Shown here: positions 2,900 through 23,040 of the stretch, piece by piece | Position numbering within the stretch: the first letter of the stretch is position 1 | How the letters are laid out: every line of letters begins with the position of its first letter | Assembly (NCBI RefSeq): GCF_036507355.1 | Contig: NZ_AP027877.1 | Reading direction: 5' to 3' (one strand) | DNA: 64,000 nucleotides | DNA from: Escherichia coli | Lineage (GTDB): Bacteria > Pseudomonadota > Gammaproteobacteria > Enterobacterales > Enterobacteriaceae | Program-made: the position numbers and the translations under genes | Notes under the pieces: generated by a model | Seen by the model: only the letters and a program-made list of their open reading frames with translations | The model's database searches: none | What the model was told of the DNA's origin: nothing

Positions 2900-3069
2900 G
2901 TTGGAGTCACTACCGTAGAAGTTAAATCAGGAAAATCGAAAAAAATGAAACGTTCGGCATTGTCGTCGAGTTCCGCTTAATGACGTATCCATCCCGTTTT
3001 CCCCTTCACGTTTTCATGTTTGATAGAGGGCAAAATTGAGCCCTCTCAATCAAGATAATGAGTGAAAAC

Positions 3070-6000
3070 CTATACCGTCCAGCTGTTCGACACCACTTCA
3101 GCCTGCTTCAGTATCAGTTCAACTGCATAAGGTGTTTTATCTGGCGGATACTTGTACTTACGCAGCGTCTGACGCACCAGAATACGTAACCGCGCACGCA
3201 CGCTTTCTCGCACCTGCCAGTCTACGGTTGTGGACTGGCGCAATTTTAACGTGACTTCGATAGCCAGTTTCTTAAGGACGTCATCACCCAGCTCCCGTAC
3301 CGCACTTTCGTTTTCTGCCAGCGCATCGTAGAACGCGATTTCGTCCGGGTTTAGCCCCAGCGCTTCATCACGCGCCATCGCTTCCTGAAACTCTTTTGCC
3401 ATCTGGATCAGTTCTTCAATCACCTGCGCAGTTTCAATGGCGCGGTTATTGTATTTGAGAAGCACGGCTTTCAGGCGATCTGAGTATTTCTTCTCCTGCA
3501 CCACGTTGTTTTTGGTGCGGGCATGAATGCCGTCGTTCAGCAGTTTCTCCAGCAACTCGACTGCCAGATTACGCTGCGGCAATTCGCGCACTTCTTCCAG
3601 AAACTCGTCTGACAACAATCCAATATTCGGCTTATCCAGACCCGCCAGCGCAAACACATCATCCACGCCCGTCGCAATAATGGCGTTATCGAGGATTTTA
3701 CCGAGTAGCGTATTTTTCTCTGACTGACTGAATTTTTTGTCGGTTGTCGTCAGCTTGATAATCGCCACTTTCACCGCCGACAAAAACGCGATCTCTTTTT
3801 GCAAGGGTTTAGCTTCATCTAACGTACTGCACAGCGACCAGGCTTTGTTCATCGCCAGCACGACATCGAAAAAGCGCTTCTTACCGTCATCAAGGCCCAG
3901 CACATAATCTGCGGCTTTGAGTAAAAACCGTTGGGGCACCTCTGCAAAACCGGTGTAATCAAACCCGGCGGCGGTTGGTGTTTTGGCAAACATTCCATGA
4001 ATCACATCCAGCTTTTCAAGCAGGATGGAGAACGCTTCATGAGCATCGACTGTCGTCTGTCCTTTACCTTTTGAATCGGTATAAGTTTTCAGCGCCTGTT
4101 TCAGTTCATTGGCGATACCGATGTAATCCACCACTAAACCGCCCGGTTTATCTTTGAAGACGCGGTTGACGCGCGCAATGGCCTGCATCAGATTATGCCC
4201 GCGCATCGGTTTGTCGATATACATGGTATGACAACATGGCGCATCAAACCCGGTAAGCCACATATCGCGCACAATCACCAGTTTCAACGGGTCGTTGAGA
4301 TCTTTAAAGCGCGCTTCAAGGCGTTTTTTGGTTTGCTTATTGTAGATGTGCGGCTGAAGGAATTTATTATCGGAGGCTGAGCCGGTCATGATGATTTTGA
4401 TTTCACCTTTCTCGACGTCATCACTGTGCCATTCCGGGCGTAGAGCCACCAGCGCATCATACAGCTTCACGCAGATCTCACGGCTCATGGCAACAATCAT
4501 TGCTTTGCCATTCATTGTGGCGTTACGTGCCTCAAAATGCTGAACCAGATCGGCGGCCACCTCATTGATACGAGGTTCAGAACCAACCAGTTTTTCCAGA
4601 CGGCTCCAGTCACTTTTGGTTTTCTCTTTCTGATCGGTCTCTTCATCTTCGACCAGCTCATCCACCTGATTAGACAGCGTTTCCAGCTCTTCGTGGTTGA
4701 GGTCGAGTTTTGCCAGGCGCGATTCATAGTAGATAGGCACGGTTGCGCCATCTTCCACCGCATCCTGTATATCGTAGATAGAGACGTAATCACCAAACAC
4801 CGCGCGGGTGTCTTTATCTTCGGAAGAAACCGGTGTTCCGGTAAAGCCCATAAACGACGCATTGGGTAACGCATCGCGCATATGTTTGGCGTAACCGTAT
4901 TTATAAGCGCCAGTCTCCCGGTTCAGCGTGGCGCTAAGACCATACTGGCTGCGGTGCGCTTCATCGGAAATGACGACGATATTGCTGCGCAGGTTTAGCG
5001 CCGGGTGAGTCTGTTCGCCATCAAGCGGGGCAAATTTTTGTACGGTGGTAAAAATAATCCCGCCTGATTCACGGACATTGAGCATCTCGCGGAGCTGGTC
5101 GCGATCGTTTGCCTGTAACGGTTCCTGCTTAAGCAAATCCTGTGCCTGGCAGAAGGTGGCATACAGTTGGCCGTCGAGATCGTTACGGTCGGTCACCACC
5201 ACGATGGTCGGGTTGTTCATTTCCGCTTGTTGTAGCAGTTTTCCGGCGTAACAACACATCGAGATACTCTTACCGGAACCCTGCGTATGCCACACCACAC
5301 CGGCTTTTTTACTGCCTGGCGTGATGTTGCTGCGCAGCGGCAAGTGTTTACCGGTAGAGGCCACAATCGTCGCCGTCACCGCTTCACGTACTGCGTGGAA
5401 TTGGTGGTAAGCGGCAATCTTTTTAATCAGTCGTTTGCCGTCGCTTTCAAACAGGATGAAGTAACGAATGTAGTCGAGCAGCAGTTCGCGGTTAAAGAAC
5501 CCTTTTACTACCGTTTCAAGCTGCCATTCAAACAGCGGTTTGTCGTCTTCATTAGACAGCGTTTTCCACGGCAAGAAGCGCTCTTCGTTCGCGGTGAGAG
5601 AGCCAATACGGGCGTTGTAGCCATCGCTGACCACCAGCGCTTCGTTGCAGATGAACAGATCGCTGAGTTCGTTTTTATAGGTCTGCAACTGATTAAATGC
5701 CGCCCAGATATCGGCATTAGCATCAATCGGGCTTTTCAGCTCAATCACTACTACTGGCAATCCGTTGATATAGCAGATAACGTCCGGGCGACGTACCTGC
5801 TTCGTTCCCTGGATGGCCACCTGATTCACCACCGTAAAGTGGTTATTATTTGGGTGGTTAAAATCCATCAGTAGCGCTTTGTCGTGGATAACTTTGTCAT
5901 CCTGCTTGTACTGCACCGGCACGCCGTCGAGCAGCAGGTGATGGAAGGCTTTGTTACTGACGACCAGATCCGGGCTTTGCGCATGGGCGATACGCAGTAT

Positions 6001-6204
6001 CACCTCATCCAGCACGGCAACCGGGAGATGTGGGTTAATCTTTTGCAACTGCTCCAGTAGCACCGGGCGCAAAAACACATCGTGGAACGACGCACGCAGC
6101 GGATTGTTGCCATCTGGCGCAATATCCGGCCCGTGCAATACTTCCCAGCCCAGTTCAGCAAACCATTGCAGGCTTTGCTGTTCTAAATCGTCTTCGCTCA
6201 GCAT
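3070..6204 (-). CDS. hsdR: Type I restriction enzyme R subunit (1044 aa)
   Basis: It has Walker A (WHTQGSGKS), a DEAH box ([13 protein letters not shown]) and a long helicase core. It is the last gene of the hsdM-hsdS-X-hsdR operon. Its ATG overlaps the upstream stop (cTGATGc). Confidence 0.95.
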
Positions 6205-7391
6205 CAGGTTTCCTCTGTCTCGGTTTCTTCCATTTCTTCGGGCACGTTTGAAATCTCTTTGAGCGCCATATTCAGTGGGGCAATAAAGGGATCTAACGCT
6301 TTTTCAAATGCCGTCAGGTTTACCAGTAGCCAGTCGATCATTTCAGGCCAGTTGGCTTCATCAAGGCTGATGGCCGGGCTGGCATAGGAAATTCGACACG
6401 ATTTTTTACCCGGCAGAGGTTCCCACTTAAGCGCATGGCCAAACGCGTTTTCAATTGCCTCTTTGCGTTCATGTAGCCAGTTAAAAGCAAAGGTATTGCT
6501 CTCTGCGGAAGCTTTGGCAATCCACAGCTCAACCCGAATCTCTTTTTTACTGAAAATCAGGTTATACGACACCGCGCTAATACCAGAGCCCGCACTGATC
6601 CAGTGATCGGTAGAGGGGCTGATATTGTTATATAAGTGGCAGGAGCTGGCTTTGAGGCGCTCCAGCATCTTTGTCCAGAAAGCTTTACGCATTAATTGGA
6701 CTGGCTTTACTCCGCCGCTGACGGATTGTTCTTCCGCCTCTTTTTGCGCCATACCGATCATGTAAGATTCTGCTTCCGGTGTGGGGATAACCTGACGGAT
6801 ATCAACGAATACATCGTCGTTGAACTTATAGGGTTTAACCTTAAAGCACTGTACCCGCAGACCAAATTGCATGAGCCACAGGGCAGTGTTGGTCACCTCT
6901 TTGCGAAAGTTGGCTGCGACCATGATGATTCGCTGTGTACGGCTCTGGTTGATTAAGGCTTCATCCAGCGTTTCATATTCGAGGAATTCAGCAAGCACCT
7001 CTGCCGCCGGGCGATTTTCCTCTGGGTCGTATTTATCCAGATAAAGCTGGAAGATCTGCAGAATTTGCTCTTTACGCAGGTTGGCGCAATACCCGGCATA
7101 TTTGAGCGCTTGCCAGACGACGTCGCGACCTGAATCATCGAGCTTATTCTCGATGATCACCAGATTGCCTTTTTTATCGATAGCCAGCAGGTCAAGGCGC
7201 TCTTTGGTGTCGTCAAAACCGGCGAACTCTTTCTGTATAATCAGTAGTTCATCGTCATTATCGCGAGTTAACGCTTGGGGATTCTGCGCCAGCCATTCCT
7301 GCAGATTGCCACGTTCGGTAAAACCAAGACTACTGAAAGAGACTTCCTGTAGGGAGTGTAAGCTGTTAGTCGGCGTATCAACTTTATACAT
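6204..7391 (-). CDS. 395-aa protein embedded in the type I R-M operon. It has an N-terminal PD-(D/E)xK (NucS/DUF91-like) motif and a C-terminal region reminiscent of DUF4268.
   Basis: The start at 7391 (MYKVDTP...) overlaps the hsdS stop (ATGTATAA). The motif [21 protein letters not shown] gives D...ExK. There is no P-loop. The stop overlaps the hsdR start. Confidence 0.7.
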
Positions 7392-8769
7392 TTTCCACCT
7401 CACTGACTGCCTGTTCTGCTTCCTGCAGGGTAATTTCACCCGAGAGAAGTTTGGGGAGAAGGGTGTCGCGGAGTTGGGTTAGTGATTCAGTTTGTACACT
7501 GAGCGATTTAATCTCATTAAATAAATGTGTACATTTGGCATGAAATAACTCCAATACTTTAGCATCAGGCTGAGCGATTTTAATTCCTGAGAAAGTAGAC
7601 GTATTGACATTTAAAGTTGCACTACCTGCGCTACCTAAAATGTGAAGATGATCTTTCAATCCCAACATACAAAAATAAAGATAATAGAGTAAGGAACTCT
7701 TATGAGGTGTAACAGAATTTATTTGCTGATTGGTATGAGATGGTTCATTGGTGATAGAAACAACACCAATAGTAGCTATACAACTAACACAGATAGAATT
7801 TGCGGGTACAAGTTTTTTTAGTTGCGACTTTGAACCGGCTTCGCTTAAATATTCATTAGTTTTAAGCACAAAAAGTTGCCCATGCATATCTGGTATCTTT
7901 ATGAATGGAACATCACTACCGTAATACTCTGGTTCTTTTTTTGACGGAGTTTTGCCACAAGTAACCTTCCCCATCTCACTAATTGACGCCACCCCCCATC
8001 CTTTAGGAATCGCCCCTAACTCACTGTCCTGCATCGCTGCCGGAAACAGTTCTGCCGTGGCTTTTAACTCGGCATATTGCTCAGGGTGTTCACGCTCAAA
8101 AACCGCCAGCGCATCCGCATCTTTCCCAGAAATGGCGGTCATGGCGGCAAGTGTTGCGTCTGCCTGCGAACCGCCCGCATCCAGTACTGCCATTTTGGCT
8201 TTTACGGGGTCAAAATCAACAAACCAACTTTTGAACAGGGCTTGTGCCATTTGTTCGAGGGTTTGGTTGATGCGATTATTACTATCAATTTTTTTACTTA
8301 ACGTAAAAATTAGCTTTGTACATCTTTTTTGATATTTTAAAGAAGGAATCTTTATTTTGTAGCTCAGCATGGCCCCTTTATCACCTCGAGGCATTTTTGC
8401 GCCCTTGGATGTAAGATGGCTATAATTAATAAAATCATCACTGCTTAAAATCAAATGTAAATATTCACTTGTGAGTTTTTCATGTGTAGTCCTAAATACT
8501 AGCACATCAGGAGAAACACCTCCGTAAAATGTGGCAAACCATACTTTTTTAAAGTACGTTCGAATATTAGAAAATAAAGTATCACCTATTTCAAAAGAAT
8601 TAAATTTGTTGACATCAGGGATGCCTGATGAAATAGTTACACCCTGACGGTCAGGCAACATATTTTCCGTGGAAATATAATTAGTAACATCTATAATAGA
8701 TGCATCACATTTTTTTGTGACTATCTCTACAAAGTTACCTAACTCAGTTTCGATGAACTCAAAACTCAT
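7384..8769 (-). CDS. hsdS: Type I R-M specificity subunit (461 aa)
   Basis: The start MSFEFIETELGNF at 8769 overlaps the hsdM end by 11 nt. Two variable target-recognition regions are separated by conserved helical spacers (LEQMAQALFKSWFVDFDPV ... LTQLRDTLLPKLLSGEI). Confidence 0.9.
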   Translation of the reverse strand: MSFEFIETELGNFVEIVTKKCDASIIDVTNYISTENMLPDRQGVTISSGIPDVNKFNSFEIGDTLFSNIRTYFKKVWFATFYGGVSPDVLVFRTTHEKLTSEYLHLILSSDDFINYSHLTSKGAKMPRGDKGAMLSYKIKIPSLKYQKRCTKLIFTLSKKIDSNNRINQTLEQMAQALFKSWFVDFDPVKAKMAVLDAGGSQADATLAAMTAISGKDADALAVFEREHPEQYAELKATAELFPAAMQDSELGAIPKGWGVASISEMGKVTCGKTPSKKEPEYYGSDVPFIKIPDMHGQLFVLKTNEYLSEAGSKSQLKKLVPANSICVSCIATIGVVSITNEPSHTNQQINSVTPHKSSLLYYLYFCMLGLKDHLHILGSAGSATLNVNTSTFSGIKIAQPDAKVLELFHAKCTHLFNEIKSLSVQTESLTQLRDTLLPKLLSGEITLQEAEQAVSEVENV

Positions 8770-10468
8770 AACCCAGCCCCCCCAGATTCGCCTTAATCTG
8801 CGCTTCCAACTTCGCGCTCTCTTCAAGCTGATCTTTAAGCTGCGCCGTCAGGCGCGCCATCTTCTCGGCAAACGGTTCATCATCTTCAGCTTGCTCGGCG
8901 GCACCAACGTAGCGCCCAGGGGTCAGCACAAAGTCGTTTTTCTGGATATCCTCCAGCGTTGCTGAGAAGCAGAATCCGGCTTCGTCTTCGTAGTCTTTAT
9001 CCGTCTGCCAGGCGTGGAAGGTATCGGCAATTCTGGCGATATCTTCGCGGGTAAAGTCGCGCAACACGCGATCTTTCATATAACCAATCTGGCGCGCGTC
9101 GATAAACAGCACTTCACCTTTACGGTGCGCTTTGCCGTTGCCACCGGATTTATCTTTGGTCAGGAACCAGATACAGGCTGGGATTTGGGTGTTGGTAAAC
9201 AGTTGCCCTGGCAGCGCCACCATACATTCCACCAGATCCGCTTCAATCAGGTTGCGGCGGATCTCGCCTTCATTGTTAGTGTTGGAACTCATCGAACCGT
9301 TCGCCAGCAGCAGCGCCATCGAACCTTTTGGCGCGAGGTGGTGGATCATGTGCTGCATCCACGCAAAGTTGGCGTTGCCCTGCGGCGGTGTGCCGTATTT
9401 CCAGCGCACGTCGTTTTCCAGCTTCGCGTTCCACCACTCCTTCATGTTGAACGGCGGGTTTGCCATCACGAAGTCAGCGCGCAGATCCGGGTGCTGGTCG
9501 TCTAGCAGGGTGTCGGCGTTTTTGGCACCAAAGTTAAAGTCGATACCGCGGATCGCCATGTTCATCGCCGCCAGCTTCCAGGTGGTCGGATTCGACTCCT
9601 GGCCGTAAACGGAAATATTGCGCTTCTGCTCAGCGGCGTTGTAATTCTTTTCGCCCGCGTGCTCTTCAATGAAACGGTCGCTGGAAACGAAGAACCCGCC
9701 GGAACCCATTGCCGGGTCATACACCCGCCCGTTGTACGGTTGCAGCATTTCGACAATCAGGGTCACGATGCTTTTTGGCGTGTAGTACTGACCTCCCTGT
9801 TTACCTTCCGCCAGCGCGAATTGCCCCAGGAAATATTCGTAAACGTGGCCGAGAATATCTTTGCTCTTTAAGCTGAGTTTCTCGCCGTTATATTCCGGGT
9901 TGCTGAAGTTTGCGTCAGAGAAGGTATTAATCAGCCCGGTCAGCACCTCGTTACTCAGTTGATACTGGCTGATGCGATTCAGAATACCTTTCAGTTTCGG
10001 GTTGGTTTTTTCGATTTCATCCAGCGCGTTATCCACCAGCCAGGAGACAGAGCGCAGCGTCACATCCTTGCCGGTGGTTTCATCCACCCACAGCACGGTG
10101 CCGGTCGGCAACATGGCTTTGTTTTTCAGCGTGTCCCAGCGCGCGGCTTTTGGCACCCAGAAGATGTTCTTTTCGGTGTAGTAATCTTCAACTTCCAGCT
10201 CTTCCTGGATAGCCTGAGCGTATTCTTCGTCGGAACCGTAATCATCGCGCGACATGGCGTAGATGTTGTCGGGATTACCGACATCGCGGAACAGGGTCGT
10301 CAGCTCCTGCTGACGCGCCTCGAAGGCATCAGAAACATACTTCAGGAAGATTAGCCCCAGCACCACATGCTTGTAGTTGGCGGCATCCATATTGGCGCGC
10401 AGTTTGTCGGCGGCCTTCCAGAATTTGTTATCCAGCTCGTTCAGAAATAGCTGTTCAGCGTTGTTCAT
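8759..10468 (-). CDS. hsdM: Type I R-M N6-adenine DNA methyltransferase subunit (569 aa)
   Basis: The start is MNNAEQLFLNELDNKFWKAADKLRANMDAANYKHVVLGLIFLKYVSDAF. The AdoMet motif is VYDPAMGSGGFF and the catalytic motif is VMANPPFN. Confidence 0.95.
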   Translation of the reverse strand: MNNAEQLFLNELDNKFWKAADKLRANMDAANYKHVVLGLIFLKYVSDAFEARQQELTTLFRDVGNPDNIYAMSRDDYGSDEEYAQAIQEELEVEDYYTEKNIFWVPKAARWDTLKNKAMLPTGTVLWVDETTGKDVTLRSVSWLVDNALDEIEKTNPKLKGILNRISQYQLSNEVLTGLINTFSDANFSNPEYNGEKLSLKSKDILGHVYEYFLGQFALAEGKQGGQYYTPKSIVTLIVEMLQPYNGRVYDPAMGSGGFFVSSDRFIEEHAGEKNYNAAEQKRNISVYGQESNPTTWKLAAMNMAIRGIDFNFGAKNADTLLDDQHPDLRADFVMANPPFNMKEWWNAKLENDVRWKYGTPPQGNANFAWMQHMIHHLAPKGSMALLLANGSMSSNTNNEGEIRRNLIEADLVECMVALPGQLFTNTQIPACIWFLTKDKSGGNGKAHRKGEVLFIDARQIGYMKDRVLRDFTREDIARIADTFHAWQTDKDYEDEAGFCFSATLEDIQKNDFVLTPGRYVGAAEQAEDDEPFAEKMARLTAQLKDQLEESAKLEAQIKANLGGLGYEF

Positions 10469-10830
10469 GTAAATCCTCGGGGTAGATCGCAGCGAAAGAG
10501 CAACCATGCCTTATCGCAAATTCAGTTTTGGAATGCAGTTCGCAAAATGATACCCGGTACACTTACGATTACAAATGCGCGGTATAAAGAAGTTTGCATT
10601 TGATCGGTGAATAATAGGAAACTCAGTCACTGTTTCGTCTGCAAAATCAGCCATTTCGCCTTCATACGTAGTTCTTCGGTTGAATAGTAAGGTCTATCAT
10701 GCTGCATCGAACGGTGATTTTGATGGATGTTGGAAGTGAGTAGCTGTACGTAATTTTTGATTAAAAGTAATCAAAATGTTGCCAATGGTTATGCTATCGT
10801 GTGTTTTTTGAATATATAACAGGTAAAACT

Positions 10831-11721
10831 ATGTCCTGGCTTAATTCTGTCTTATTGGCGCTTACCTCGGTGCAACCTTATATGGTACCGGCAACCGTTA
10901 TCGGCCTCGTCAGTTTTGCATTCCTCTGTTTTATTTTCTTTTATTTTTTTAGAGCAGTTAAAATTATTAACGGCCTGAAAAAATATACTCAGTCAATTAA
11001 TGGCATCGAAAATAATGAGCCTGGTAATCAGCTTCAGCATCTGCAAAGTTTGTTTGTACAGCCTGAGTTAAAGCACGCCTGGAATGAATTCGAAGAATCG
11101 TTGCACTCACAATATGAACTGGAGGACGGGGAAGAGAAAATCGTCCGTATTAGGGCTACTGCACCGAGCGCCAGTTTCTTCTCGGAGCAACAACTGGTCG
11201 ATATTCCGCTGAACACCGAATTTTTCAAACACCTGCCCGGTATTCTGACCGGTGTGGGGATTATCGGTACCTTCTACGGTCTGATGATTGGTCTCAACCA
11301 CTTCGACCCCAGCACACCAGAGCAGGTCTCCAGCAGCGTCAATAATCTGCTTCGCGATGTGCTGTACGCCTTCCTCGGTTCAGCATTTGCGATTACGTTC
11401 TCTATCCTTATCACCTGGCTGGAGAAATTCTGTCTGGCGAAATGCTACAAATATCTGGAAAAATTCACCGCAGCTCTCGACGCCCTCTATGACAGCGGTG
11501 TTGGCGAGGAGTACCTTGCCTCACTGGTAAAATCCAGTAATGAAAGCGCGACCCAGGCACGCCATCTGAAAGAGAGCCTGGTTACCGATTTACGCGATAT
11601 GCTGCTGCATCTGGCCAACAGCCAGAAAGTGGAAAACGAGCGGCTAGCGACCACCCTCAGCACCACCTATCGCGAAACAGGACAACAGTTTGCCGAGCAA
11701 GTCAGCGGTGCGATTGAAAAC
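10831..11721 (+). pseudogene. MotA/ExbB/TolQ-type proton-channel protein (ZorA-like N-terminal ~297 aa), truncated by IS629
   Basis: It has N-terminal TM helices, then LPGILTGVGIIGTFYGLMIGL and LYAFLGSAFAITFSILITW (MotA/ExbB-like TM pair), then the beginning of a long helical tail. The reading frame runs into the first bases (TGA) of IS629 at 11722. The start is ATG 10831 or the upstream GTG 10801. Confidence 0.6.
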
Positions 11722-11775
11722 TGAACCGCCCCGGGAATCCTGGAGACTAAACTTCCTGAGAAAGAGGTAAACAGG

Positions 11776-12102
11776 ATGACTAAAAATACTCGTTTTTCCC
11801 CCGAAGTCCGTCAACGGGCAGTCCGTATGGTTCTGGAAAGTCAGAGCGAATATGACTCACAATGGGCGACAATTTGTTCCATTGCTCCAAAGATTGGCTG
11901 TACGCCGGAGACTCTGCGTGTCTGGGTTCGCCAGCATGAGCGGGATACCGGGGGCGGTGATGGAGGGCTCACCACCGCTGAACGTCAGCGTCTGAAAGAG
12001 CTGGAACGTGAAAATCGTGAACTGCGCCGCAGTAACGATATCCTTCGCCAGGCTTCCGCTTATTTTGCGAAGGCGGAGTTCGACCGCCTCTGGAAAAAAT
12101 GA
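11776..12102 (+). CDS. IS629 OrfA (108 aa)
   Basis: The translation matches IS629/IS1203 OrfA from memory. It has an HTH and a leucine zipper, and ends in the A-rich slippery region (ggaaaaaatga). Confidence 0.9.
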
Positions 12103-12989
12103 TGCCACTGCTGGATAAGCTGCGTGAGCAGTACGGGGTCGGACCGCTATGCAGCGAACTGCATATTGCCCCGTCAACGTATTACCACTGTCAGCAACAG
12201 CGACATCATCCGGATAAACGCAGTGCCCGTGCGCAGCGCGATGACTGGCTGAAGAAAGAGATACAGCGCGTATACGATGAAAATCACAAGGTATACGGTG
12301 TGCGTAAAGTCTGGCGTCAGTTGTTACGGGAAGGTATCAGAGTGGCCAGATGCACTGTGGCACGTCTCATGGCGGTTATGGGACTTGCCGGTGTTCTCCG
12401 GGGTAAAAAGGTCCGTACGACCATCAGCCGGAAAGCCGTTGCCGCAGGCGACCGCGTAAACCGTCAGTTCGTGGCAGAACGACCTGACCAGCTGTGGGTG
12501 GCTGATTTTACTTACGCCAGCACATGGCGGGGCTTCGTCTATGTGGCGTTCATCATTGATGTGTTTGCCGGATACATCGTGGGGTGGCGGGTCTCATCGT
12601 CCATGGAAACGACATTCGTGCTGGATGCACTGGAGCAGGCGTTATGGGCCCGTCGACCGTCCGGCACGGTCCATCACAGTGATAAAGGTTCTCAGTATGT
12701 ATCGCTGGCCTACACACAGCGGCTTAAGGAAGCCGGATTACTGGCATCAACAGGAAGTACAGGCGACTCGTATGACAACGCGATGGCGGAGAGCATCAAT
12801 GGTCTTTACAAAGCGGAGGTAATACACCGTAAGAGCTGGAAAAACCGTGCAGAAGTGGAACTGGCCACACTCACGTGGGTGGACTGGTATAACAATCGAC
12901 GATTGCTGGAAAGGCTGGGCCATACTCCTCCGGCAGAAGCAGAAAAAGCTTATTATGCTTCCATCGGAAACGATGATCTGGCAGCCTGA
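12099..12989 (+). CDS. IS629 OrfB (DDE transposase catalytic part, 296 aa)
   Basis: DDE/rve-type motifs are present: WVADFTY..., [17 protein letters not shown]. Confidence 0.9.
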
Positions 12990-13153: not shown

Positions 13154-13999
13154 ATGTTACGTGGTTCAGAAAGAAAAGAAGCATTAGCCAGTCTCAAAAG
13201 TGCAACTAACCGTTATGAAGTACAGGCTAAAGACACCCAGGATGAGATCACTGCCCTCTTTCTGTTACGCCAGAAATGCAGTAAGGACCTGATTGCCCGT
13301 GGTGAAAATTTTGTTAATCGACTGGCGAATACACCGAAAGAGTTTGATAAATCCTGGAGCGAATTGAAAGCGGAAATCGCTGAATTTGATAACGTGGTGG
13401 AAAAACTGGAAGAAGAATACCGCGCATCACATATTGGTAAAGGAACGGCTGCTGCGGGGGTTGCCGTTGGGGCGGGGGTCGCCGCATTTGCCCCTACGGC
13501 TGCGCTGGCGGTCGCAACAACTTTTGGTACAGCATCCACGGGTACCGCTATTGCTACGTTAAGCGGAGCTGCCGCAACAAATGCAGCCCTGGCATGGCTC
13601 GGCGGCGGCGCACTGGCTGCGGGTGGCGGTGGCATGTCAGCAGGAAGCGCACTACTGGCTCTGGCGGGTCCAATAGGCTGGGGGATTGGTGCTGTAGGCA
13701 TCGCTGGCGGAACCTTACTAGCCCGTCGCAAAAACGGTAAAATCATTGATGAAGCACAACAGGAAGAGCGCCAGGTTCGCGCAAAAACCAGCGAACTTCG
13801 CGTGATGGAACGTGGTGCGCAAGAACTCAAGATGCTCACATCCGAGCACTATCATGGTACTGAAAGCATTATTGATGTGCTGGAAAAGGCTGCGCCTCAA
13901 GACTATTGCCAGTTTAATACCCATCAGAAAGATCAATTAGGGGCATTGATTAACCATATCAATGCATTATCAAAACTGATCAACAAGAAAATCCAGTAA
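13154..13999 (+). CDS. 281-aa coiled-coil protein with a central Gly/Ala-rich hydrophobic (glycine-zipper-like) region. Function unknown.
   Basis: AGGAG lies 7 nt upstream of the ATG. The N- and C-terminal thirds are charged and helical. The centre, GKGTAAAGVAVGAGVAAFAPTAALAVATTFG...LAGPIGWGIGAVGIAGGTLLARRK (~95 aa), is hydrophobic. Its stop overlaps the next start (TAATG). Confidence 0.75.
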   Translation: MLRGSERKEALASLKSATNRYEVQAKDTQDEITALFLLRQKCSKDLIARGENFVNRLANTPKEFDKSWSELKAEIAEFDNVVEKLEEEYRASHIGKGTAAAGVAVGAGVAAFAPTAALAVATTFGTASTGTAIATLSGAAATNAALAWLGGGALAAGGGGMSAGSALLALAGPIGWGIGAVGIAGGTLLARRKNGKIIDEAQQEERQVRAKTSELRVMERGAQELKMLTSEHYHGTESIIDVLEKAAPQDYCQFNTHQKDQLGALINHINALSKLINKKIQ

Positions 14000-15444
14000 T
14001 GAGCATTAACCATAATACAGTTGGCGACCAGCTTATCGGCAGCGCGGTTAACGCCATTAATCAGACCCGCATTGATAATGAACTGTTAAAACTATCGCAG
14101 CAGGATCGTGCATTTGAGTTGGCTGGCGAACAAATGCAAAAGGTGCGTGATTTCATCGCGTCACCGGGTAACATCCTGGGCTCAATGAGCACCAAACACG
14201 GTGAAATTGCTGAGCAGGTAGAAGTTGGCGTGCGCAATGCTCGCCAGGCAATAGAAGAAAGGGTTCAGGATGCCTCTGATCTTAGCGCCACGTTTGACGG
14301 AGTGGGTCGAACCGCTCCGGCGGATTATATGATAGATGGCGTTGACGTGCAGTCAAAGTTTATCAACGGAGTTAATAATAACCTGAACCATGTCCTTCAG
14401 CACATGGAAACCTATCCCAATTTCACCCGGGGAGAATCCTTTTACCATATCCCCAAAGACTCCTGGCAAACGATTCAGGATGTTATTGATGGGAAGCCGG
14501 TGGAGGGCTTGAGCGAAAAAACAATACAGGCTATCAGGGATAAAGTTGCAGAAATTGAAAGTACAACGGGAAGATCCTTTAATGATGTCGTGCGTCCTGG
14601 AGTTTCTGATTACAAAGATGTTCAGTGGGGAAAAATTGACGAAACTCTTGATAAACATGATCAGGAATTAGCGGAACAGAACGAGGCAAAAAAAGCAGAA
14701 ATTATTGACGATCACCAACCCTCCCTAAGTGAAGGCATGCGTGCAACCGCAATGGGAGCCGCTTTCGGTGGAACCTTTGCTCTTGTAACAGGTATATATA
14801 GCAAATACCGTGACGGTAAAAATATATTTCGTGGAGATTTCAACAGACAGGACTGGCAGGATGTCGGCTTAGATACATTGAAAGGTGCCGCTATTGGCGG
14901 TGTATCCGCCGGAGCAATTTATACCCTGACCAATTATGCCTCTCTGGGAGCACCGTTCGCCAGCGCGCTGGTCACTGCCGCTAAAGGTGTAAGCAATCTT
15001 GCTCTCTCCTATCAGCGCGGTGAGATTAATGCTGATGAATTTACCGATCTTGGCCTTATCATCTGCGCGGAATCGGCCATCGTTGGCGCAATGTCTGTCG
15101 CAGGTCAGGCAATCATCCCTGTGCCTGTTTTGGGGGCATTGGTTGGTTCTATCTCAGGGAAGTTTATGGTTACCGTAGCTAAAAATCTGGACAGTAAAGC
15201 ACGCCAATTGCTGGCGAAAAAAATGGAGCAATTTACATGTCGCTTAAGTGAGATTGAGCAGAAAGCACTCAACCGAATTTTGAACGAGTTCGCGGCGCTG
15301 GGTGAGCTTACCGCAGCTGCATTTAGCGTGGAAAACAATCGCCGGTTGCTGGAAGCAAGCATCACGCTTGCCCAAGCCCACGGTGTTGAAGAGGCGAAGA
15401 TAATCAAAAATGCGGATGATCTTGACACATTTATGATGGCGTAG
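13999..15444 (+). CDS. 481-aa protein with an N-terminal soluble domain (HG-x2-AE ... AD-x3-DG-x-DVQSKF) followed by a Gly-rich multi-helix membrane region. Function unknown.
   Basis: It is translationally coupled to the upstream gene. Hydrophobic Gly/Ala-rich segments span residues ~245-400. The soluble domain is paralogous to residues ~405-460 of the next protein. Confidence 0.75.
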   Translation: MSINHNTVGDQLIGSAVNAINQTRIDNELLKLSQQDRAFELAGEQMQKVRDFIASPGNILGSMSTKHGEIAEQVEVGVRNARQAIEERVQDASDLSATFDGVGRTAPADYMIDGVDVQSKFINGVNNNLNHVLQHMETYPNFTRGESFYHIPKDSWQTIQDVIDGKPVEGLSEKTIQAIRDKVAEIESTTGRSFNDVVRPGVSDYKDVQWGKIDETLDKHDQELAEQNEAKKAEIIDDHQPSLSEGMRATAMGAAFGGTFALVTGIYSKYRDGKNIFRGDFNRQDWQDVGLDTLKGAAIGGVSAGAIYTLTNYASLGAPFASALVTAAKGVSNLALSYQRGEINADEFTDLGLIICAESAIVGAMSVAGQAIIPVPVLGALVGSISGKFMVTVAKNLDSKARQLLAKKMEQFTCRLSEIEQKALNRILNEFAALGELTAAAFSVENNRRLLEASITLAQAHGVEEAKIIKNADDLDTFMMA

Positions 15445-15480
15445 CACTCGAATAAAAATTACAGCAAGGATAAAACCACA

Positions 15481-18003
15481 ATGCTACAGATAATTGGTGC
15501 GTTAATTTTACTGGTAATCGGTTTTGTTATTATAAAAGCGTTGTTTAAGGCATCTCTCAATATTCTAGGTGTGATATTAGGATTGGGTGCATTGATTGTT
15601 GCAGGCCCACCTTTATTGGCGGGCTATATTGTAGAGCGCGTAACCTATGCGCTTCACTCACGTTGGCTGCTGGGTGTACCTCTTGCCATAGCAGGAATGG
15701 TGATTAGCTTTATGTGGGGACTTGATGGTAAACATATTGCCTACGAAGCCTATTCATTTGATTCAATGAAGTTTATTTTAACCGCTGCATTTGCCAGTGG
15801 CCTGCTTGCAGTACCTGTACAAACCAAGGCTATTCTACAAAACGGGCTTATACCAGCCGATATCAATGCCAAACTTAAAGAGTATTATTGCTGTTTTTAT
15901 ACGTCTTACTTTTTGATGGCCTGCTCTGCGGCTACACCGTTTATAGCCTGGCAATATAATATCTCATCTTCACTGATGTGGTGGACAGGATTGCTATACT
16001 GGATAGCAGCCTTACTGACACAGTTCTATGCGGCAAACCAAATTCAGGAACTCAAGAAGTTAACTAATGCCATCAATACAGGGTTAAATGAGCAAAAAGC
16101 GATCAATAACCAACTTTGGCTGACGGAACTAAAAGAAGGAAGTAACCTCTCAGCAGAATTCGTAGAGACTATCTATCTTAAGTTGGTCTCACAGCATATT
16201 TTTCAGGGCGATACTCGAGAGCAGGATCTGGCTGGTGAAAACTGGCTTTTAAATGATGCCTGGTATGAAAGAAAGATGGCTGAATTTAATGAGCAGTTAA
16301 ACAGTAAAATTGTACACTCATCAGATGAGCTAAGAAGCCTTTTTGGTAATAGGCTGAATTTACCCTCTGCTGCGAATGATGATCTCCTGAACCGTTATCT
16401 TGATGGTGGGAACTATTATTCTTTTTCGGATGGTCGAAAATTTGTCTCGTTTCACTATGTCGACGAGCTTTGTACCTGCACTTCATGCGGTTTGAGCGAG
16501 ATTAAAAACGCAAAACACCAGGACGGTTGTGGGAGCCAGGAATGGTATTGCTCTGATATTTGCCGGGAAACGGAAAAACTCTGCATTGAAATTCACAAGC
16601 GACCACAGGCTGAATTTATTTCCAGTGCAGCAACAAACGGTCTGATTCTCATGACGCTCCCGGAGGCCTGGAATACTAACGAAAAAATGTTTGCAGTGGG
16701 AGGACAAGGACATGGTTTTGCAGCCGAACGGGGAAATCATCTTACTGACAAAATCCAACTAAAAGATGCACATATTCTCGGTGATGATAATGCGAAAAAT
16801 GGTGCAGACAGGCTGGTTAACGGTTCAGAGATTCAGACCAAATACTGTGCAACCGCTGCACGTAGCGTCGGTGCTGGTTTTGACGGACAAAACGGTAATT
16901 ATCGCTATTATGACAGTAACGGAACCCCAATGCAGTTAGAGGTTCCGAAAGACCAGTATTCGAAAGCGCTTGAAACGATGGAGAACAAAATTCGCGATGG
17001 CAAAGTCCCCGGCGTTACCGATCCTGCAGAAGCCACAAAACTTGTACGTCAGGGACACCTGACTTATAGCCAGGCACAAAACATTACTAAGTTTGGCACG
17101 TTCGAATCTATCACTTACGACATTGCGGAAGGATCTATCATCAGCCTCGCAGCTGGAGGTATCAGCTTCGGTCTGACAGCTTCTATTTTCTACCTCAATA
17201 CCGGCGATCGTAAGGCTGCGTTGCAAACGGCAGCAATACAGGCAGGTAAAACATTTACCCGCACACTGACAGTTTATGTGACGGTACAGCAATTACACCG
17301 TATCAGTGCCGTTCAGGGGTTACTTAAAAATATTGATTTTGCCGCTGCCAGCCCGACAGTTCGTAATGCGCTTCAACAGGGAGTCGGAGCTAACAATCTC
17401 AACTCCCTTAACAAGATGATGCGTGGCACACTGGTTACCTCTTTCGCACTGGTCGCCGTGACCACTGGTCCGGATATGATCAAAATGGTGCGAGGTCGTA
17501 TTTCTGGGGCACAGTTTATAAAAAATCTGGCAGTTACTTCATCTGGTGTGGCTGGGGGGGCAATTGGTTCTATTGCTGGCGGAATGATGCTTAGTCCATT
17601 AGGTCCTTTCGGTGCTTTAGCAGGACGCGCAGCTGGTGGCTTGTTAGGCGGTATGATTGCCACAGCGATTTCCAAAAAAATAGCGGGTGCACTGGTTGAA
17701 GACGACCGAGTAAAAGTGCTGGCTCTCATCCAGGAACAGGTTACATGGCTTGCAACAAGTTTCATGCTTACAGCACACGAACTTGAAAACCTGAACGCGA
17801 ATCTGGCAACAGTAATTGACCAAAAAACCCTGGAGGTTATCTTCGCCGCAAAAGAGCAAGACCGAGCAACGGCCAATATGCTGATTAAACCACTTGTAGT
17901 AAGTGTGGTTAAGCAACGACCGGTCCTGAGCTATGAACAATCGCAAATCTGCGAAATGGTCGATCAGCTTGATACATCGGTTTCATTATCTGCTGTTGCA
18001 TAA
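15481..18003 (+). CDS. 840-aa polytopic membrane protein. It has ~6 N-terminal TM helices, a Cys-rich (MYND/zinc-ribbon-like) segment, an HGFAAE...ADRLVNGSEIQTKY domain and a C-terminal Gly-rich membrane region. Function unknown.
   Basis: AAGGA lies ~10 nt upstream of the ATG. TM-like stretches span residues 1-185. The Cys cluster is CTCTSCG-x14-C-x6-YCSDIC-x6-C at residues 331-368. Unverified recollection: the N-terminus resembles YeeR-type inner-membrane proteins of E. coli CP4-44-like islands. Confidence 0.75.
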   Translation: MLQIIGALILLVIGFVIIKALFKASLNILGVILGLGALIVAGPPLLAGYIVERVTYALHSRWLLGVPLAIAGMVISFMWGLDGKHIAYEAYSFDSMKFILTAAFASGLLAVPVQTKAILQNGLIPADINAKLKEYYCCFYTSYFLMACSAATPFIAWQYNISSSLMWWTGLLYWIAALLTQFYAANQIQELKKLTNAINTGLNEQKAINNQLWLTELKEGSNLSAEFVETIYLKLVSQHIFQGDTREQDLAGENWLLNDAWYERKMAEFNEQLNSKIVHSSDELRSLFGNRLNLPSAANDDLLNRYLDGGNYYSFSDGRKFVSFHYVDELCTCTSCGLSEIKNAKHQDGCGSQEWYCSDICRETEKLCIEIHKRPQAEFISSAATNGLILMTLPEAWNTNEKMFAVGGQGHGFAAERGNHLTDKIQLKDAHILGDDNAKNGADRLVNGSEIQTKYCATAARSVGAGFDGQNGNYRYYDSNGTPMQLEVPKDQYSKALETMENKIRDGKVPGVTDPAEATKLVRQGHLTYSQAQNITKFGTFESITYDIAEGSIISLAAGGISFGLTASIFYLNTGDRKAALQTAAIQAGKTFTRTLTVYVTVQQLHRISAVQGLLKNIDFAAASPTVRNALQQGVGANNLNSLNKMMRGTLVTSFALVAVTTGPDMIKMVRGRISGAQFIKNLAVTSSGVAGGAIGSIAGGMMLSPLGPFGALAGRAAGGLLGGMIATAISKKIAGALVEDDRVKVLALIQEQVTWLATSFMLTAHELENLNANLATVIDQKTLEVIFAAKEQDRATANMLIKPLVVSVVKQRPVLSYEQSQICEMVDQLDTSVSLSAVA

Positions 18004-18840: not shown

Positions 18841-19072
18841 CGCCTCTTTGATAACGCATCATACTGCCAGCGGAATAACTCTCTTCGTCAATACGGCTCT
18901 CGCTGTACGCTTACCCATCTAGAGAGGTTTCAGGTGATTATCGATGTCAGAAGACTGAATGATTCAGTCGTTTACTTTGAGATAGATCAGAGGTTTTTCA
19001 CTACCTGTGTTCATCACATGGCTACGAATAGTAGAATCCAAGCATAAATTAACGCTTAGAAAAGTTGAGCTC

Positions 19073-22000
19073 ATGAGATTCCACCCTGAAGGGCCTTCCA
19101 TACCCGATATCCTCTTAGAACGCTGTGATACAGGTCGAGTTGTATTTCTCTGTGGCGCTGGGGTTTCATTACCTTCAGGGATGCCAAGCTTTGTAGAGCT
19201 TACCCAGCATGTAATTGAATACTTTGACCCACCACACGATTCAGAAATCATGGCAGCATTTCGCCCATGGCTTCACGACCAATCTTCAGCTAATGTCCCT
19301 CTCGACCAAATTTTCAACCTCCTACATCTGGAATATGGCAAGGATGAGGTGAATGCTTTGGTATCAAAGCGTCTGGGGACTGCAAGAACTGATATAGAGA
19401 TTGGACGTGAGCATGCCCTGATTAAAAGAATTTCCTCAAATCAGAGTGGTGTCCCACAGATTGTCACAACGAACTTTGACCGACTGTTCGAGGATAACCA
19501 AGCGCAAGATAATCTAACTCGATATGTGCCGCCAGCTTTCCCAAATCTGAATTTCGGTTCGACAATTGAGGGAATAACATATCTTCACGGCCGCCTGGTC
19601 GACGAAAATGCTGTAAACCATCCTTATGTGCTGAGCAGTGCAGACTTTGGAAGAGCATATCTTTCAGAAGGATGGGCGACCAATTTTATTAAGCTTCTTC
19701 TGGAACGATACATCGTTGTTTTGGTCGGTTATCAGGCAGAAGACCCACCAGTTAAATACCTCCTTCAGGGTCTCAATCATGATGGCCAGTATGATCGTTC
19801 CAGACTTTATGCATTTGATCGCGGCCTTGCCGAGGATATCGAAGCCAAATGGCGTGACAGAGGAGTTACAGCCATAGCCTATTCCGATCATCCAGCTCTT
19901 TGGAAGACTTTGGAAGCATGGGCTGAGCGAGTAGATGATCCACGTCGATGGCGAGCTTCTATTATCGCTAAAAGCCAGCAAGATCCGAAAGTTCTAGCAC
20001 CGTATGAACGTGGTCAACTTGCCCATATACTTCGCACTACACAAGGTGCGAAATTGTTCTCTGAAGCTGTTCCTCTTCCCCATCCAGAGTGGCTTTGTGT
20101 GATGGATGCAAATATTCGGTCAGCCAAACAGAAGAAAAGATACTACGAACTTGATGACAATGATGCAGAGACCTTCGATCCACAAGAAGCTTATGGGCTT
20201 GATGACGATCTGCAAGATATCGCTGATGATGAACGTAAACGTGGAGTGAGTAACGATAATCTCCTTGAATAGCGCGACGAAGATGATAACCCGTCAGATT
20301 ACCATCGCTTGGCTGGATGTTTGGAGACAATGCCGAAACGATTGAGCCATCTCATGGTCTGGTTCTGCAAATCTCTTGATAGCCCCGTGATGGCTTGGTG
20401 GGCTATCCGAAAAATCAGTATTCATCCTCTACTACTACAAAATATTGAACGCAATATTGAGCATTCAACATCAATCCACAAACGCGCTCGTCAACTGTGG
20501 GGCTTAATTCTTGAACATCATAAAGATCCCCGCAATCGTCGTTATGACGTCGATTGGTACGACTTAAAAGCTCGAATTACAAAACAAGGCTGGACAGCTG
20601 GTGTCTTACGAGAATTTCGTAGGGTAATGACACCCCGATTGGAAAAGAAGTTGCCGTATGGATTGGGTGAAGTCAGACCGCCAAGCGGCTCCTGGGAGGA
20701 AATTCAGTTCAGCGAATTTGGCCAATTTGAAGTTGTGTTCACCGAAAGACATGATGACGATTTAGACGTACCTGACAATGTATTACTACAAGTATTTAAT
20801 GCCTTAGAAGCGCAAATAATAATTGCCTCCGGAATGTTAGAGGATATTGATACGCACTACTTTCCAAGCCCAAGTTGTTATCCAGAACGTGCGGTTGAAG
20901 GAGAAGAACATTTCGCGAAAGGTGCGGAGGTATTAACTTGGTTTGTCCAACTTTTAGACCGAGTTGTTATGAAGTGGCCAGAATTGGCTAAGGCATAAGT
21001 AACAACTTGGCCAGTTAAGGAGCCATTTTTCTTCCGAAAGCTTAGACTTTATGCATTCAGTAAAAAAGGCGTCTTTGAGGCTGACCGTGTTGCCGAAGAG
21101 CTTTTGTCTTTGGATCAAAGTGGATTTTGGGACACAAATATTACCCGCGAACTTCTTTTTCTGCTCACTGATCGTTGGGAAGAATTCTCGCAAGAAAATC
21201 AGAATCGAATTATAGAGCATATATTAACCGGCCCGAACCATTTACTTTATTTGTCTGAGGAAGACATTCCAAAAGAAAGAGAGATATTAGCAGCTAGATA
21301 CGCTCGTTATCTCGAACTAAACGGCTGTAAAGTAACCACTATTCATCGTGACCAACTAACTGCGATGATTAAAAGAATTCCTGACTGGAATGATGGCTGG
21401 GCTACATCTGTTGTCATCAATTGGGGTTCACGGACAGGTTGGGTTCGTACAGACGAAAAGCCAGATATAATCTTAGATCTTCCAGCAAACGAAATAATCC
21501 CAAAAGTAAAAGAGATACTTAAACGAGAGGATGATAGCTTTACTAGTAGGCAACCCTTTGTCGGATTGATAAAAGAAAATCCGCGTAAAGCTTTGTCTGC
21601 ACTCGCTATTGCAGGGAGAGGCGGTGATTACCCTAAGGAATTTTGGTCGCCAATGATAAGTGAGTTACCTATAGATCTTAAACCAAGGGTGAGACGAGTA
21701 TTCCTGAACCGAATTGTGCGATTGCCAGTTACAGCTTTGGTCGAGTTACGACATACATTAAGTAACTGGCTTGAACAAAATTTAGCTGCGACTCTTGAAT
21801 TTGATGAGGATCTCGGGTGGGCAGTTTACGATCATGTCATAGCAGGCATACTGAGTGGTGGCGCCAGTGCAATACGGAGTAGTTTCGGAGAAGTTATCCG
21901 GAATGGAGAAGTTGTAATACAGTCTCGCCGCACGTTCAGTCATGCAATCAATGGTCCTGTCGGTAAATGTACTCAAGCGCTTTTTCAAGCAATGCCAAGT

Positions 22001-22882
22001 GAAGAGAAAAAAGCTGGTTCGCTTATTCCTTACTCTATTAAGTCTCGTATTGAACATCTTTTTACTGCACCAGGAGAAGGAGCGGACCACGCTATAGCTA
22101 TAACGTCTCGCAATCTAAATTGGCTAATGTTTGTTGATCCTGCATGGGTAAAGGAATGGCTTATACCCCTTTTGGATTTAAAACATCCTGCAGCAGAACC
22201 AGCATGGAATGGTTATCTTCAGTGCAATGCTATGCCTTCAATTGCAGTAGCTGAACTTATTAAACCAGCTTTTCTTAACCTTATCCCTTGGATCGAATCT
22301 CTTTCTTGGGAAAAAGATTATTCAGTTCGAGCTTCGCAATGGCTTGGCTTAATGAGAATGTTTCACCCTGATGAGCCCTCCAGTCCTTCCAGGAATGAAA
22401 TGCGCTCCATATTACGAGCATTATCTGACGAGGCTCGAAATCGTTTTATTTCCTGGTTAGGATTGGTCGGGCAGAAAAACGAGAGTGGCTGGGTTAAGTA
22501 TGTGATCCCATTAATCAGAGAGGACTGGCCCAAAGAACGCCAATATAGAACCACGAGCTCTGTAAAAGCATGGATTGGTTTACTTGACGATACTGGCGAT
22601 AAGTTTCCGGAGGTTTACGATTCAGTAAAAACATACTTAGTACCAATCGAGACAATTGATCATTTGTTCTACAGATTCACTCGGGAGCTCGGTGGTAAAG
22701 GAGCAATTGCGGCTATTTTTCCAGAAACCACGCTTGATTTAATGGACAAAATAACACCACTGATATTCACGCGTACATCAGGAGAGCTGCAGAAGATTCT
22801 TGAGCTAATTGAAGATACAGATACAAGTCTGATCAAGGATTCTCGGTACTTACGGCTTATTGCACTGGTTGAGAAAAATTAG
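19073..22882 (+). pseudogene. ~1270-codon SIR2-domain (DSR-like defence-associated sirtuin) ORF interrupted by two in-frame stop codons (TAG 20270-20272, TAA 20996-20998)
   Basis: Track ORFs 19007-20272, 20309-20998 and 21104-22882 are all in the same frame, and the frame stays open between them. The N-terminal SIR2-type motifs are VFLCGAGVSLPSGMPSF, QIVTTNFDRLFE, YLHGRL and VLVGYQAEDPPV. The rest is a long helical region. Confidence 0.75.
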
Positions 22883-23040
22883 CATTTATGGTTTTTTACC
22901 GTTGTTGATTACTCAGCAACACTTTTCGACATGCCGTAGCGCTTATCGCCTGTTCTTGACTAAGATGAGAAGCAGGCGTTAAAGTTTGGTTAAAGGAGAA
23001 CCTCTAACCATTCCTTCTGGAAGAAATAATCTTTGGAGTA

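Follow-up and report, generated by a model that had tools for sequence, protein, structure and literature searches.

A predicted NucS-like nuclease of the PDC-S11 family embedded in a type I restriction-modification operon of Escherichia coli

The operon and its embedded gene

We analysed a 64,000-nucleotide stretch of the Escherichia coli contig NZ_AP027877.1 (assembly GCF_036507355.1), hereafter called the window, which carries a type I restriction-modification (R-M) operon with an additional gene, designated X, lodged between hsdS and hsdR. An earlier inspection of the letters and their translations (the sequence-only reading) had proposed the order hsdM-hsdS-X-hsdR, with overlapping reading frames at all junctions. 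Four intact genes were found in exactly this order, all on the minus strand, and Pfam matches confirmed the identity of HsdM, HsdS and HsdR. The window is chromosomal, and the locus is 100% identical in the E. coli strains SK1144 and ET826.

The methyltransferase subunit is encoded by hsdM (8759-10468, minus strand, as are the genes that follow). This extent uses the RefSeq start, the longest open reading frame (ORF) reaching to 10507; the product matched N6_Mtase (E=6e-116) and HsdM_N, and the RefSeq annotation of the gene was found in ET826 and SK1144. The specificity gene hsdS (7384-8769; 461 amino acids), also annotated in RefSeq, matched Methylase_S in two stretches. X (6204-7391) starts with the ATG at 7391 and encodes 395 amino acids, a NucS-like PD-(D/E)xK nuclease followed by a DUF4268 domain as judged by PADLOC, Pfam and its homologues. 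The restriction subunit of 1044 amino acids is encoded by hsdR (3070-6204) and showed matches to HSDR_N, SWI2_SNF2, T1R_D3-like and T1RH-like_C, as well as to TIGR00348 with E=1e-193. The overlaps, read from the sequence, amount to 11 nucleotides between hsdM and hsdS (8759-8769), to the 8 nucleotides ATGTATAA between hsdS and X (7384-7391), and to the single nucleotide (6204) that the TGA stop of X shares with the ATG of hsdR in TGATG. Promoter and terminator sites predicted in the region 2900-10900 did not outnumber those in shuffled sequence, and an internal terminator signal was not detected there.

The position of X is that of a known anticodon nuclease, as had been pointed out from the gene order. 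In the prr locus, PrrC lies between hsdS and hsdR of a type I operon, and its partner EcoprrI belongs to type IC. The operon in the window was considered as one of this type IC/PrrC kind and rejected, its HsdR matching that of EcoR124I only with E~1e-30, in the motor domain.

X is a real gene and not a chance ORF, since an identical protein exists in RefSeq and since thousands of homologues were found. The RefSeq entry WP_021579902.1, a 'DUF4268 domain-containing protein' present in E. coli genomes, is 100% identical to X; the family comprises at least 6927 matches at 90% clustering and 5064 clusters at 50% identity. The PADLOC model PDLC04913 for PDC-S11 matched with E=3e-173, aligning amino acids 1-379 of X with positions 1-373 of the 375 in the profile, and seven other hidden Markov models (HMMs) of PDC-S11 also gave matches. 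By these profile matches, X is a member of the already catalogued PDC-S11 family. The phage defence candidates (PDCs) were collected through 'guilt-by-embedding' in BREX, DISARM and type I R-M loci (Payne et al. 2024). X is like PDC-S11 both in the full-length HMM match and in its embedding in a type I R-M operon, with hsdM, hsdS, X and hsdR co-oriented on one strand of the window, and no structural difference was apparent. The PDC-S11 match, the definition given by Payne et al. and the RefSeq annotation together mean that neither the family nor its embedding in type I operons is new to the literature.

The two modules of X

The N-terminal module of X (amino acids 1-205; 6777-7391, minus strand) contains E55, D67, E81-x-K83 and Q94-x3-Y98, which make up the core of a PD-(D/E)xK nuclease of the RecB/NucS branch. 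The predicted catalytic segment D67...E81-N-K83 (amino acids 67-83; 7143-7193, minus strand) is conserved in homologues and coincides with the 17-residue motif on which the sequence-only reading had based its proposal of a NucS-like PD-(D/E)xK N-terminus. All six core residues are invariant among close homologues (alignment A1). Had the motif been a chance resemblance, these residues might have varied in the wider family; instead, E55, D67, E81, K83, Q94 and Y98 are each conserved in at least 94% of 150 representatives drawn from 50%-identity clusters, with counts of 130/133 for D67 and 132/135 for both E81 and K83. A cysteine of the same module, C182, is conserved in 142/148 representatives. 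Structure prediction gave the module a restriction-endonuclease-like fold, with NucS as the nearest solved fold.

Against the PDDEXK_4 and NucS profiles, X itself produced sub-threshold matches only, and more distant members of the family exceed the Pfam NucS_C threshold. A profile of the X family searched against PDB sequences returned nothing meaningful (best E=0.23). Motifs, conservation and predicted fold identify the N-terminal part of X as a PD-(D/E)xK nuclease of NucS/RecB type whose active site is complete and conserved. X was rejected as an orthologue of NucS/EndoMS, since it scored 15.2 bits against the cut-off of 216 of the equivalog model, with only amino acids 63-106 aligned; it also differs from those enzymes in its N-terminus, in the added DUF4268 domain and in a defence-island rather than housekeeping context.

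A search for the Walker A motif ([AG]x4GK[ST]) in X found none, and no ATPase family was present among its Pfam, NCBIfam and PADLOC matches. Without the N-terminal ABC-ATPase and its Walker A motif, X was rejected as a PrrC or RloC protein, in agreement with the original remark that it has no P-loop and is neither of the two.

The C-terminal part of X forms a module of its own, the DUF4268 domain. A resemblance to DUF4268 had been noticed by eye, and it was substantiated by a strong Pfam match (PF14088) over amino acids 234-369 (6285-6692, minus strand), with E=2.3e-36 and 125.3 bits against a gathering cut-off of 27. Modelled alone, the domain reached a predicted local distance difference test score (pLDDT) of 93.5 and adopted an alpha-beta3-alpha2-beta2-alpha fold of the YktB, type III secretion chaperone or YbjN type, proteins that are protein-binding or of unknown role. 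Foldseek comparison of the model with viral structures (BFVD) gave no match at E<=0.001, and the PHROGs search yielded a single unannotated family, matched by DUF4268. Some family members of 536-739 amino acids (P0211, P0214 and P0246) contain 3-5 DUF4268 domains in tandem. Close homologues show no variation at two cysteines of the domain, C251 and C332 (window ~6639-6641 and ~6396-6398; C26 and C107 in alignment A3), or at the tryptophans W239, W323, W348 and W354 of X.

Cassette boundaries and genomic distribution

The X allele of the window is present in about 59 E. coli genomes. X occurs in roughly 1-2% of the E. coli genomes, with a patchy and island-borne distribution next to Zorya, SIR2 genes and integrases. 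In about 55 further E. coli genomes, hsdR is only 60-80% identical at the nucleotide level; SA186, the one inspected among them, carries a 397-amino-acid variant of X in an hsdM-hsdS-X-hsdR operon of the leuX island. A sister operon in E. coli AREA_C483, with an hsdR 82% identical in nucleotides, is annotated as hsdM-hsdS-hsdR without X, and there hsdS overlaps hsdR directly.

Comparison with this X-less operon located both ends of the X segment. On the left, homology in hsdS ends just past ...AGYGAGG, at a GAGG in the hsdS 3' end (7398-7401, minus strand), which lies 6 nucleotides upstream of the ATG of X in a Shine-Dalgarno-like position. On the right, a second GAGG (6212-6215, minus strand) lies in the last codons of X and is followed by AAACCTGATG, and the two together match the junction GAGGAAGCCTGATG formed by the end of hsdS and the start of hsdR in the X-less operon. 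AREA_C483 lacks the approximately 1186 bases that separate the two GAGG copies. Because the insert recreates the ancestral hsdS/hsdR junction, a Shine-Dalgarno-like GAGG and an overlapping stop and start are retained for X as well as for hsdR. The last codons of X (...EET and the stop) mirror the C-terminal codons of hsdS (...EEA and the stop) together with the stop/start junction of the X-less operon, and the end of the acidic tail of X may be derived from hsdS. Judged by this comparison, X is an optional and precisely inserted cassette.

We surveyed the genomic context of close relatives of X (49-91% identical) in 80 loci, one genome per species, with hsd genes mapped by phmmer and Pfam. In 62 of the 80 loci, X lay within a type I operon or next to one, so that homologues of X at this level of identity do not lie mostly outside R-M loci, an outcome that would have weakened the proposal of an R-M-linked role. 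It was located between hsdS and hsdR in 55/80, which answers the question, raised by the sequence-only reading, of how often X-like genes occupy that slot. The arrangement was hsdS-X-hsdR directly in 31 loci, usually with the same 8-nucleotide overlap of hsdS and X, and truncated contigs in 3 others were compatible with it. One or two other genes separated X from hsdR in 16 loci, and X lay elsewhere within the operon in 5. The order hsdM-hsdS-hsdR-X was seen in 4 loci, X stood beside a type I operon in 3, and 18 loci had no hsd gene within 8 kb of X. The enrichment of X in type I operons is therefore strong among close relatives (69-78%). The host operons represent no fewer than two type I families, which diverge strongly: HsdM has ~570 amino acids in one (E~0 to the HsdM of the window) and ~794 amino acids in the other (E~1e-25).

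A more distant clade of metagenomic sequences, ~31-34% identical to X, was located with an alignment of nine sequences of the clade. Here hsd genes were present in 17 of the 44 loci with adequate flank and absent from the other 27. In this clade (P0223 and P0231-P0264; loci L085-L164) the motif RRIDLL...VVIELKR..DGGHMxLQAxRYAAM replaces the ERLDLL... of the X type. The clade is common in soil and freshwater metagenomes and is less often embedded in R-M operons. No recurring neighbour was found in the solitary loci of either set: any one Pfam family appeared in at most 2 of the 118 ORFs neighbouring X in the 18 solitary close-relative loci, and over the two sets in at most 2-3 of 105-118 neighbouring ORFs. 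A conserved second partner gene was therefore rejected, the neighbours being heterogeneous. Solitary homologues retain intact active sites. The solitary relatives, the divergent type I hosts and the X-less E. coli operon of the same family thus argue that X is an optional, autonomous cassette.

Several loci of the survey showed further peculiarities. Between X and hsdR, sampled loci of marine Gammaproteobacteria carry extra cargo, either RhuM/Fic genes or a Schlafen-AlbA_2 plus HATPase_c_4 gene (L021 9157-10188; L027 5839-7782; L044 2711-4102; L067 9180-10652). An AlbA_2/HATPase_c_4 gene also directly follows X in two loci without R-M genes, which hints at a pairing of X with AlbA_2. In Citrobacter murliniae (L018, 6648-12322), hsdS, X and hsdR are each broken into 2-3 ORFs, and the operon is apparently decaying.

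Beyond hsdM, in the region 10830-12989, the window retains a Zorya remnant. The zorA frame ends at ~11724, after about 300 of 729 codons, and is followed directly by an IS3-family element (insertion sequence, IS) with orfA at 11776-12102 and orfB at 12099-12989. In the closest genomes, ET826 and SK1144, a type I Zorya system (zorA1-zorB1-zorC-zorD) flanks hsdM; it is mostly missing from the window. From the shortened zorA, the adjoining IS element and the full Zorya of ET826 and SK1144, we infer that ~7.2 kb were lost next to the IS3-family element. An IS1-family element (2202-2899) lies directly downstream of hsdR, at the position where SK1144 has a gene with a UvrD-helicase domain, a hypothetical gene and a tyrosine integrase. 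Farther out, three co-oriented unannotated ORFs of 281, 481 and 840 amino acids occupy 13154-18003, the first with a long Gly/Ala-rich segment, and the region ~19007-23000 encodes a SIR2-family protein and further hypothetical proteins, followed in ET826 by IS5 and an integrase. Both regions look like more defence-island content.

The probable role of X

We favour the explanation that X is an autonomous, single-gene PDC-S11 endonuclease cassette that acts alone as a modification-dependent (type IV-like) enzyme, and give it a probability of about 0.6. Of its two parts, the autonomous cassette is far better secured than the dependence on modification. Inserted exactly at the hsdS/hsdR junction, X would be co-transcribed, translationally coupled and co-transferred with the operon, and its embedding would thereby provide co-regulation and co-transfer. 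It would cut phage DNA containing hypermodified bases, such as the glucosylated hydroxymethylcytosine of T-even phages. Host DNA bearing N6-methyladenine or 5-methylcytosine would be ignored, so that no immunity partner would be needed; no requirement for a cognate methyltransferase or an immunity partner emerged from the solitary loci, whose neighbours are heterogeneous. Substrates might be discriminated by DUF4268 or by the NucS-like nuclease domain through base flipping. The type I enzyme would restrict unmodified foreign DNA, and X would catch the hypermodified phages that evade it.

The type IV-like part is suggested by the link of DUF4268 to GmrSD, by published data on MdgA and MdgB, by a matching residue number and by the precedent of TgvAB and BrxU. 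According to Machnicka et al., DUF4268 occurs as an additional domain in the type IV enzymes GmrSD. MdgA (modification defence gene A) and MdgB, recovered by functional selection, are single-gene nucleases with DUF4268 that protect E. coli against T4 but not against the unmodified T4-GT7 (PMC12366544; Cell Host Microbe 2025). In the same study, mdgA expressed as a single gene sufficed for defence, and purified MdgA degraded T4 DNA far better than T4-GT7 DNA, an activity abolished by the E77A substitution. MdgA is like X in being a single-gene nuclease with DUF4268 that is widespread across phyla; it differs in coming from a metagenomic insert for which R-M embedding was not described, and in having its catalytic glutamate at residue 77, where X has E81. 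The glutamate of the ExK motif is residue 77 in 81 of 135 representatives of the X family (60%), which fits MdgA being a member of this family, the link being circumstantial. A literature search for papers following up MdgA found none.

TgvAB is a type IV system embedded in a type I operon of Vibrio cholerae and is independent of HsdR restriction activity, and BrxU is a modification-dependent nuclease embedded in BREX. Like X, both lie within a type I R-M or BREX operon, and both act independently and complement the surrounding system. They differ from X in their DUF262/DUF1524 chemistry (GmrSD, HNH-type), and TgvAB consists of two proteins, whereas X is a single PD-(D/E)xK protein. DUF262 (ParB-like NTPase) and DUF1524 (HNH) were not among the Pfam matches of X, and X was rejected as a member of GmrSD because both are absent.

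Several observations weigh against this explanation. The fold of DUF4268 is unlike known readers of modified bases (SRA, EVE, PUA and winged helix), and the sensing of DNA modification by this domain is therefore left without structural support. The model of full-length X reached only moderate confidence (pLDDT 73). Homology of X to MdgA is suggested solely by their architecture, their distribution and the shared residue number. For PDC-S11, as for the other PDCs, candidate status is all that was explicitly given (Payne et al. 2024). The strong enrichment in type I operons and the tight translational coupling also leave some room for functional interplay between X and the Hsd proteins.

The chaperone- or YbjN-like structure of DUF4268 is no known DNA-reader fold, and the variants with 3-5 tandem copies suggest a ligand-binding repeat. 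X could then be an autonomous nuclease with a trigger other than modification, in which DUF4268 senses either a protein of the phage or some DNA structure and DNA, possibly also that of the host in abortive infection, is then degraded. Solitary occurrence suits any self-contained sensor-effector and so would agree with such a nuclease as well. However, in the only experiments on proteins that join a nuclease to DUF4268, the purified protein cleaves directly and in a modification-dependent manner without any phage protein (PMC12366544), and DUF4268 has otherwise been reported fused to the type IV enzyme GmrSD (Machnicka et al.). We regard a non-modification trigger as a minor but real possibility. 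DUF4268 could also be a protein-binding sensor and not a DNA reader. A phage protein, or lost contact with the Hsd complex, would then activate X, at least in its R-M-embedded clade, and X would apply the guard principle of PrrC with a PD-(D/E)xK nuclease; this we consider doubtful, an outside chance.

The guard idea in its strict form, in which X is latent on HsdMS/HsdR and is released once a phage anti-restriction protein of the kind of Ocr, ArdA, Stp or DarA has disabled the type I enzyme, draws on the shared slot with PrrC, on translational coupling at both sides of X, on the strong enrichment in type I operons and on the PrrC precedent itself; the nearness of the DUF4268 fold to protein-binding type III secretion chaperones would provide a possible protein-interaction module. 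PrrC, however, combines an ABC-ATPase N-domain with a tRNA-cleaving C-domain and is almost exclusively embedded (Payne et al. 2024), whereas X has a DNA-nuclease fold, no ABC-ATPase sensor domain and frequent solitary loci, 18/80 and 27/44 in the two surveys being without hsd genes and without a conserved partner. Moreover, X resides in very different type I families, in some loci after hsdR or beside other cargo genes; the same R-M family occurs without X; and the solved type IC HsdR of EcoR124I is no more than a distant relative of the HsdR of the window. DUF4268 nucleases protected E. coli as single genes (PMC12366544), and the embedded TgvAB works independently of HsdR restriction activity. 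A strict PrrC-like guard is therefore quite improbable. The sequence-only reading had offered X as an R-M-guarded second-line effector: a second-line, complementary effector is plausible, but guarding by the R-M complex is unsupported in view of the solitary relatives, the divergent type I hosts and the X-less sister operon.

The same reading had suggested, alternatively, an accessory factor for specificity or recruitment. As an accessory subunit of the type I enzyme, X would recruit it, modify its specificity or act as a processing nuclease extending HsdR cleavage, and its place in the operon with overlapping reading frames, including the 8-nucleotide overlap with hsdS kept in most close relatives, would be expected. 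The suggestion found no support: the sister operon is annotated as complete hsdM-hsdS-hsdR without X, solitary homologues have kept intact active sites, and X appears in unrelated type I families, in a slot that also receives unrelated cargo genes. We judge such a subunit very unlikely. Of equally low probability is a role outside defence, either as a repair nuclease like NucS/EndoMS, whose structure is the nearest solved fold, or as a selfish nuclease cassette, for which the precise, cassette-like insertion could speak. X scores 15 bits against the 216 demanded by the NucS equivalog model, its distribution in E. coli is patchy and island-borne, and its link to R-M and other defence genes is strong.

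The locus can be annotated, correctly but routinely, as a defence island of E. coli whose type I R-M operon contains a PDC-S11 nuclease gene and adjoins the remains of a Zorya system. Should DUF4268 prove to read modified DNA, its fold would be a new one among readers; should it prove to bind proteins, the guard hypothesis would be reopened. The E. coli allele would offer a convenient native model for PDC-S11 and for recognition by DUF4268. E. coli strains with this operon probably restrict both unmodified and hypermodified DNA, which would be relevant to host range in phage therapy and to cloning.

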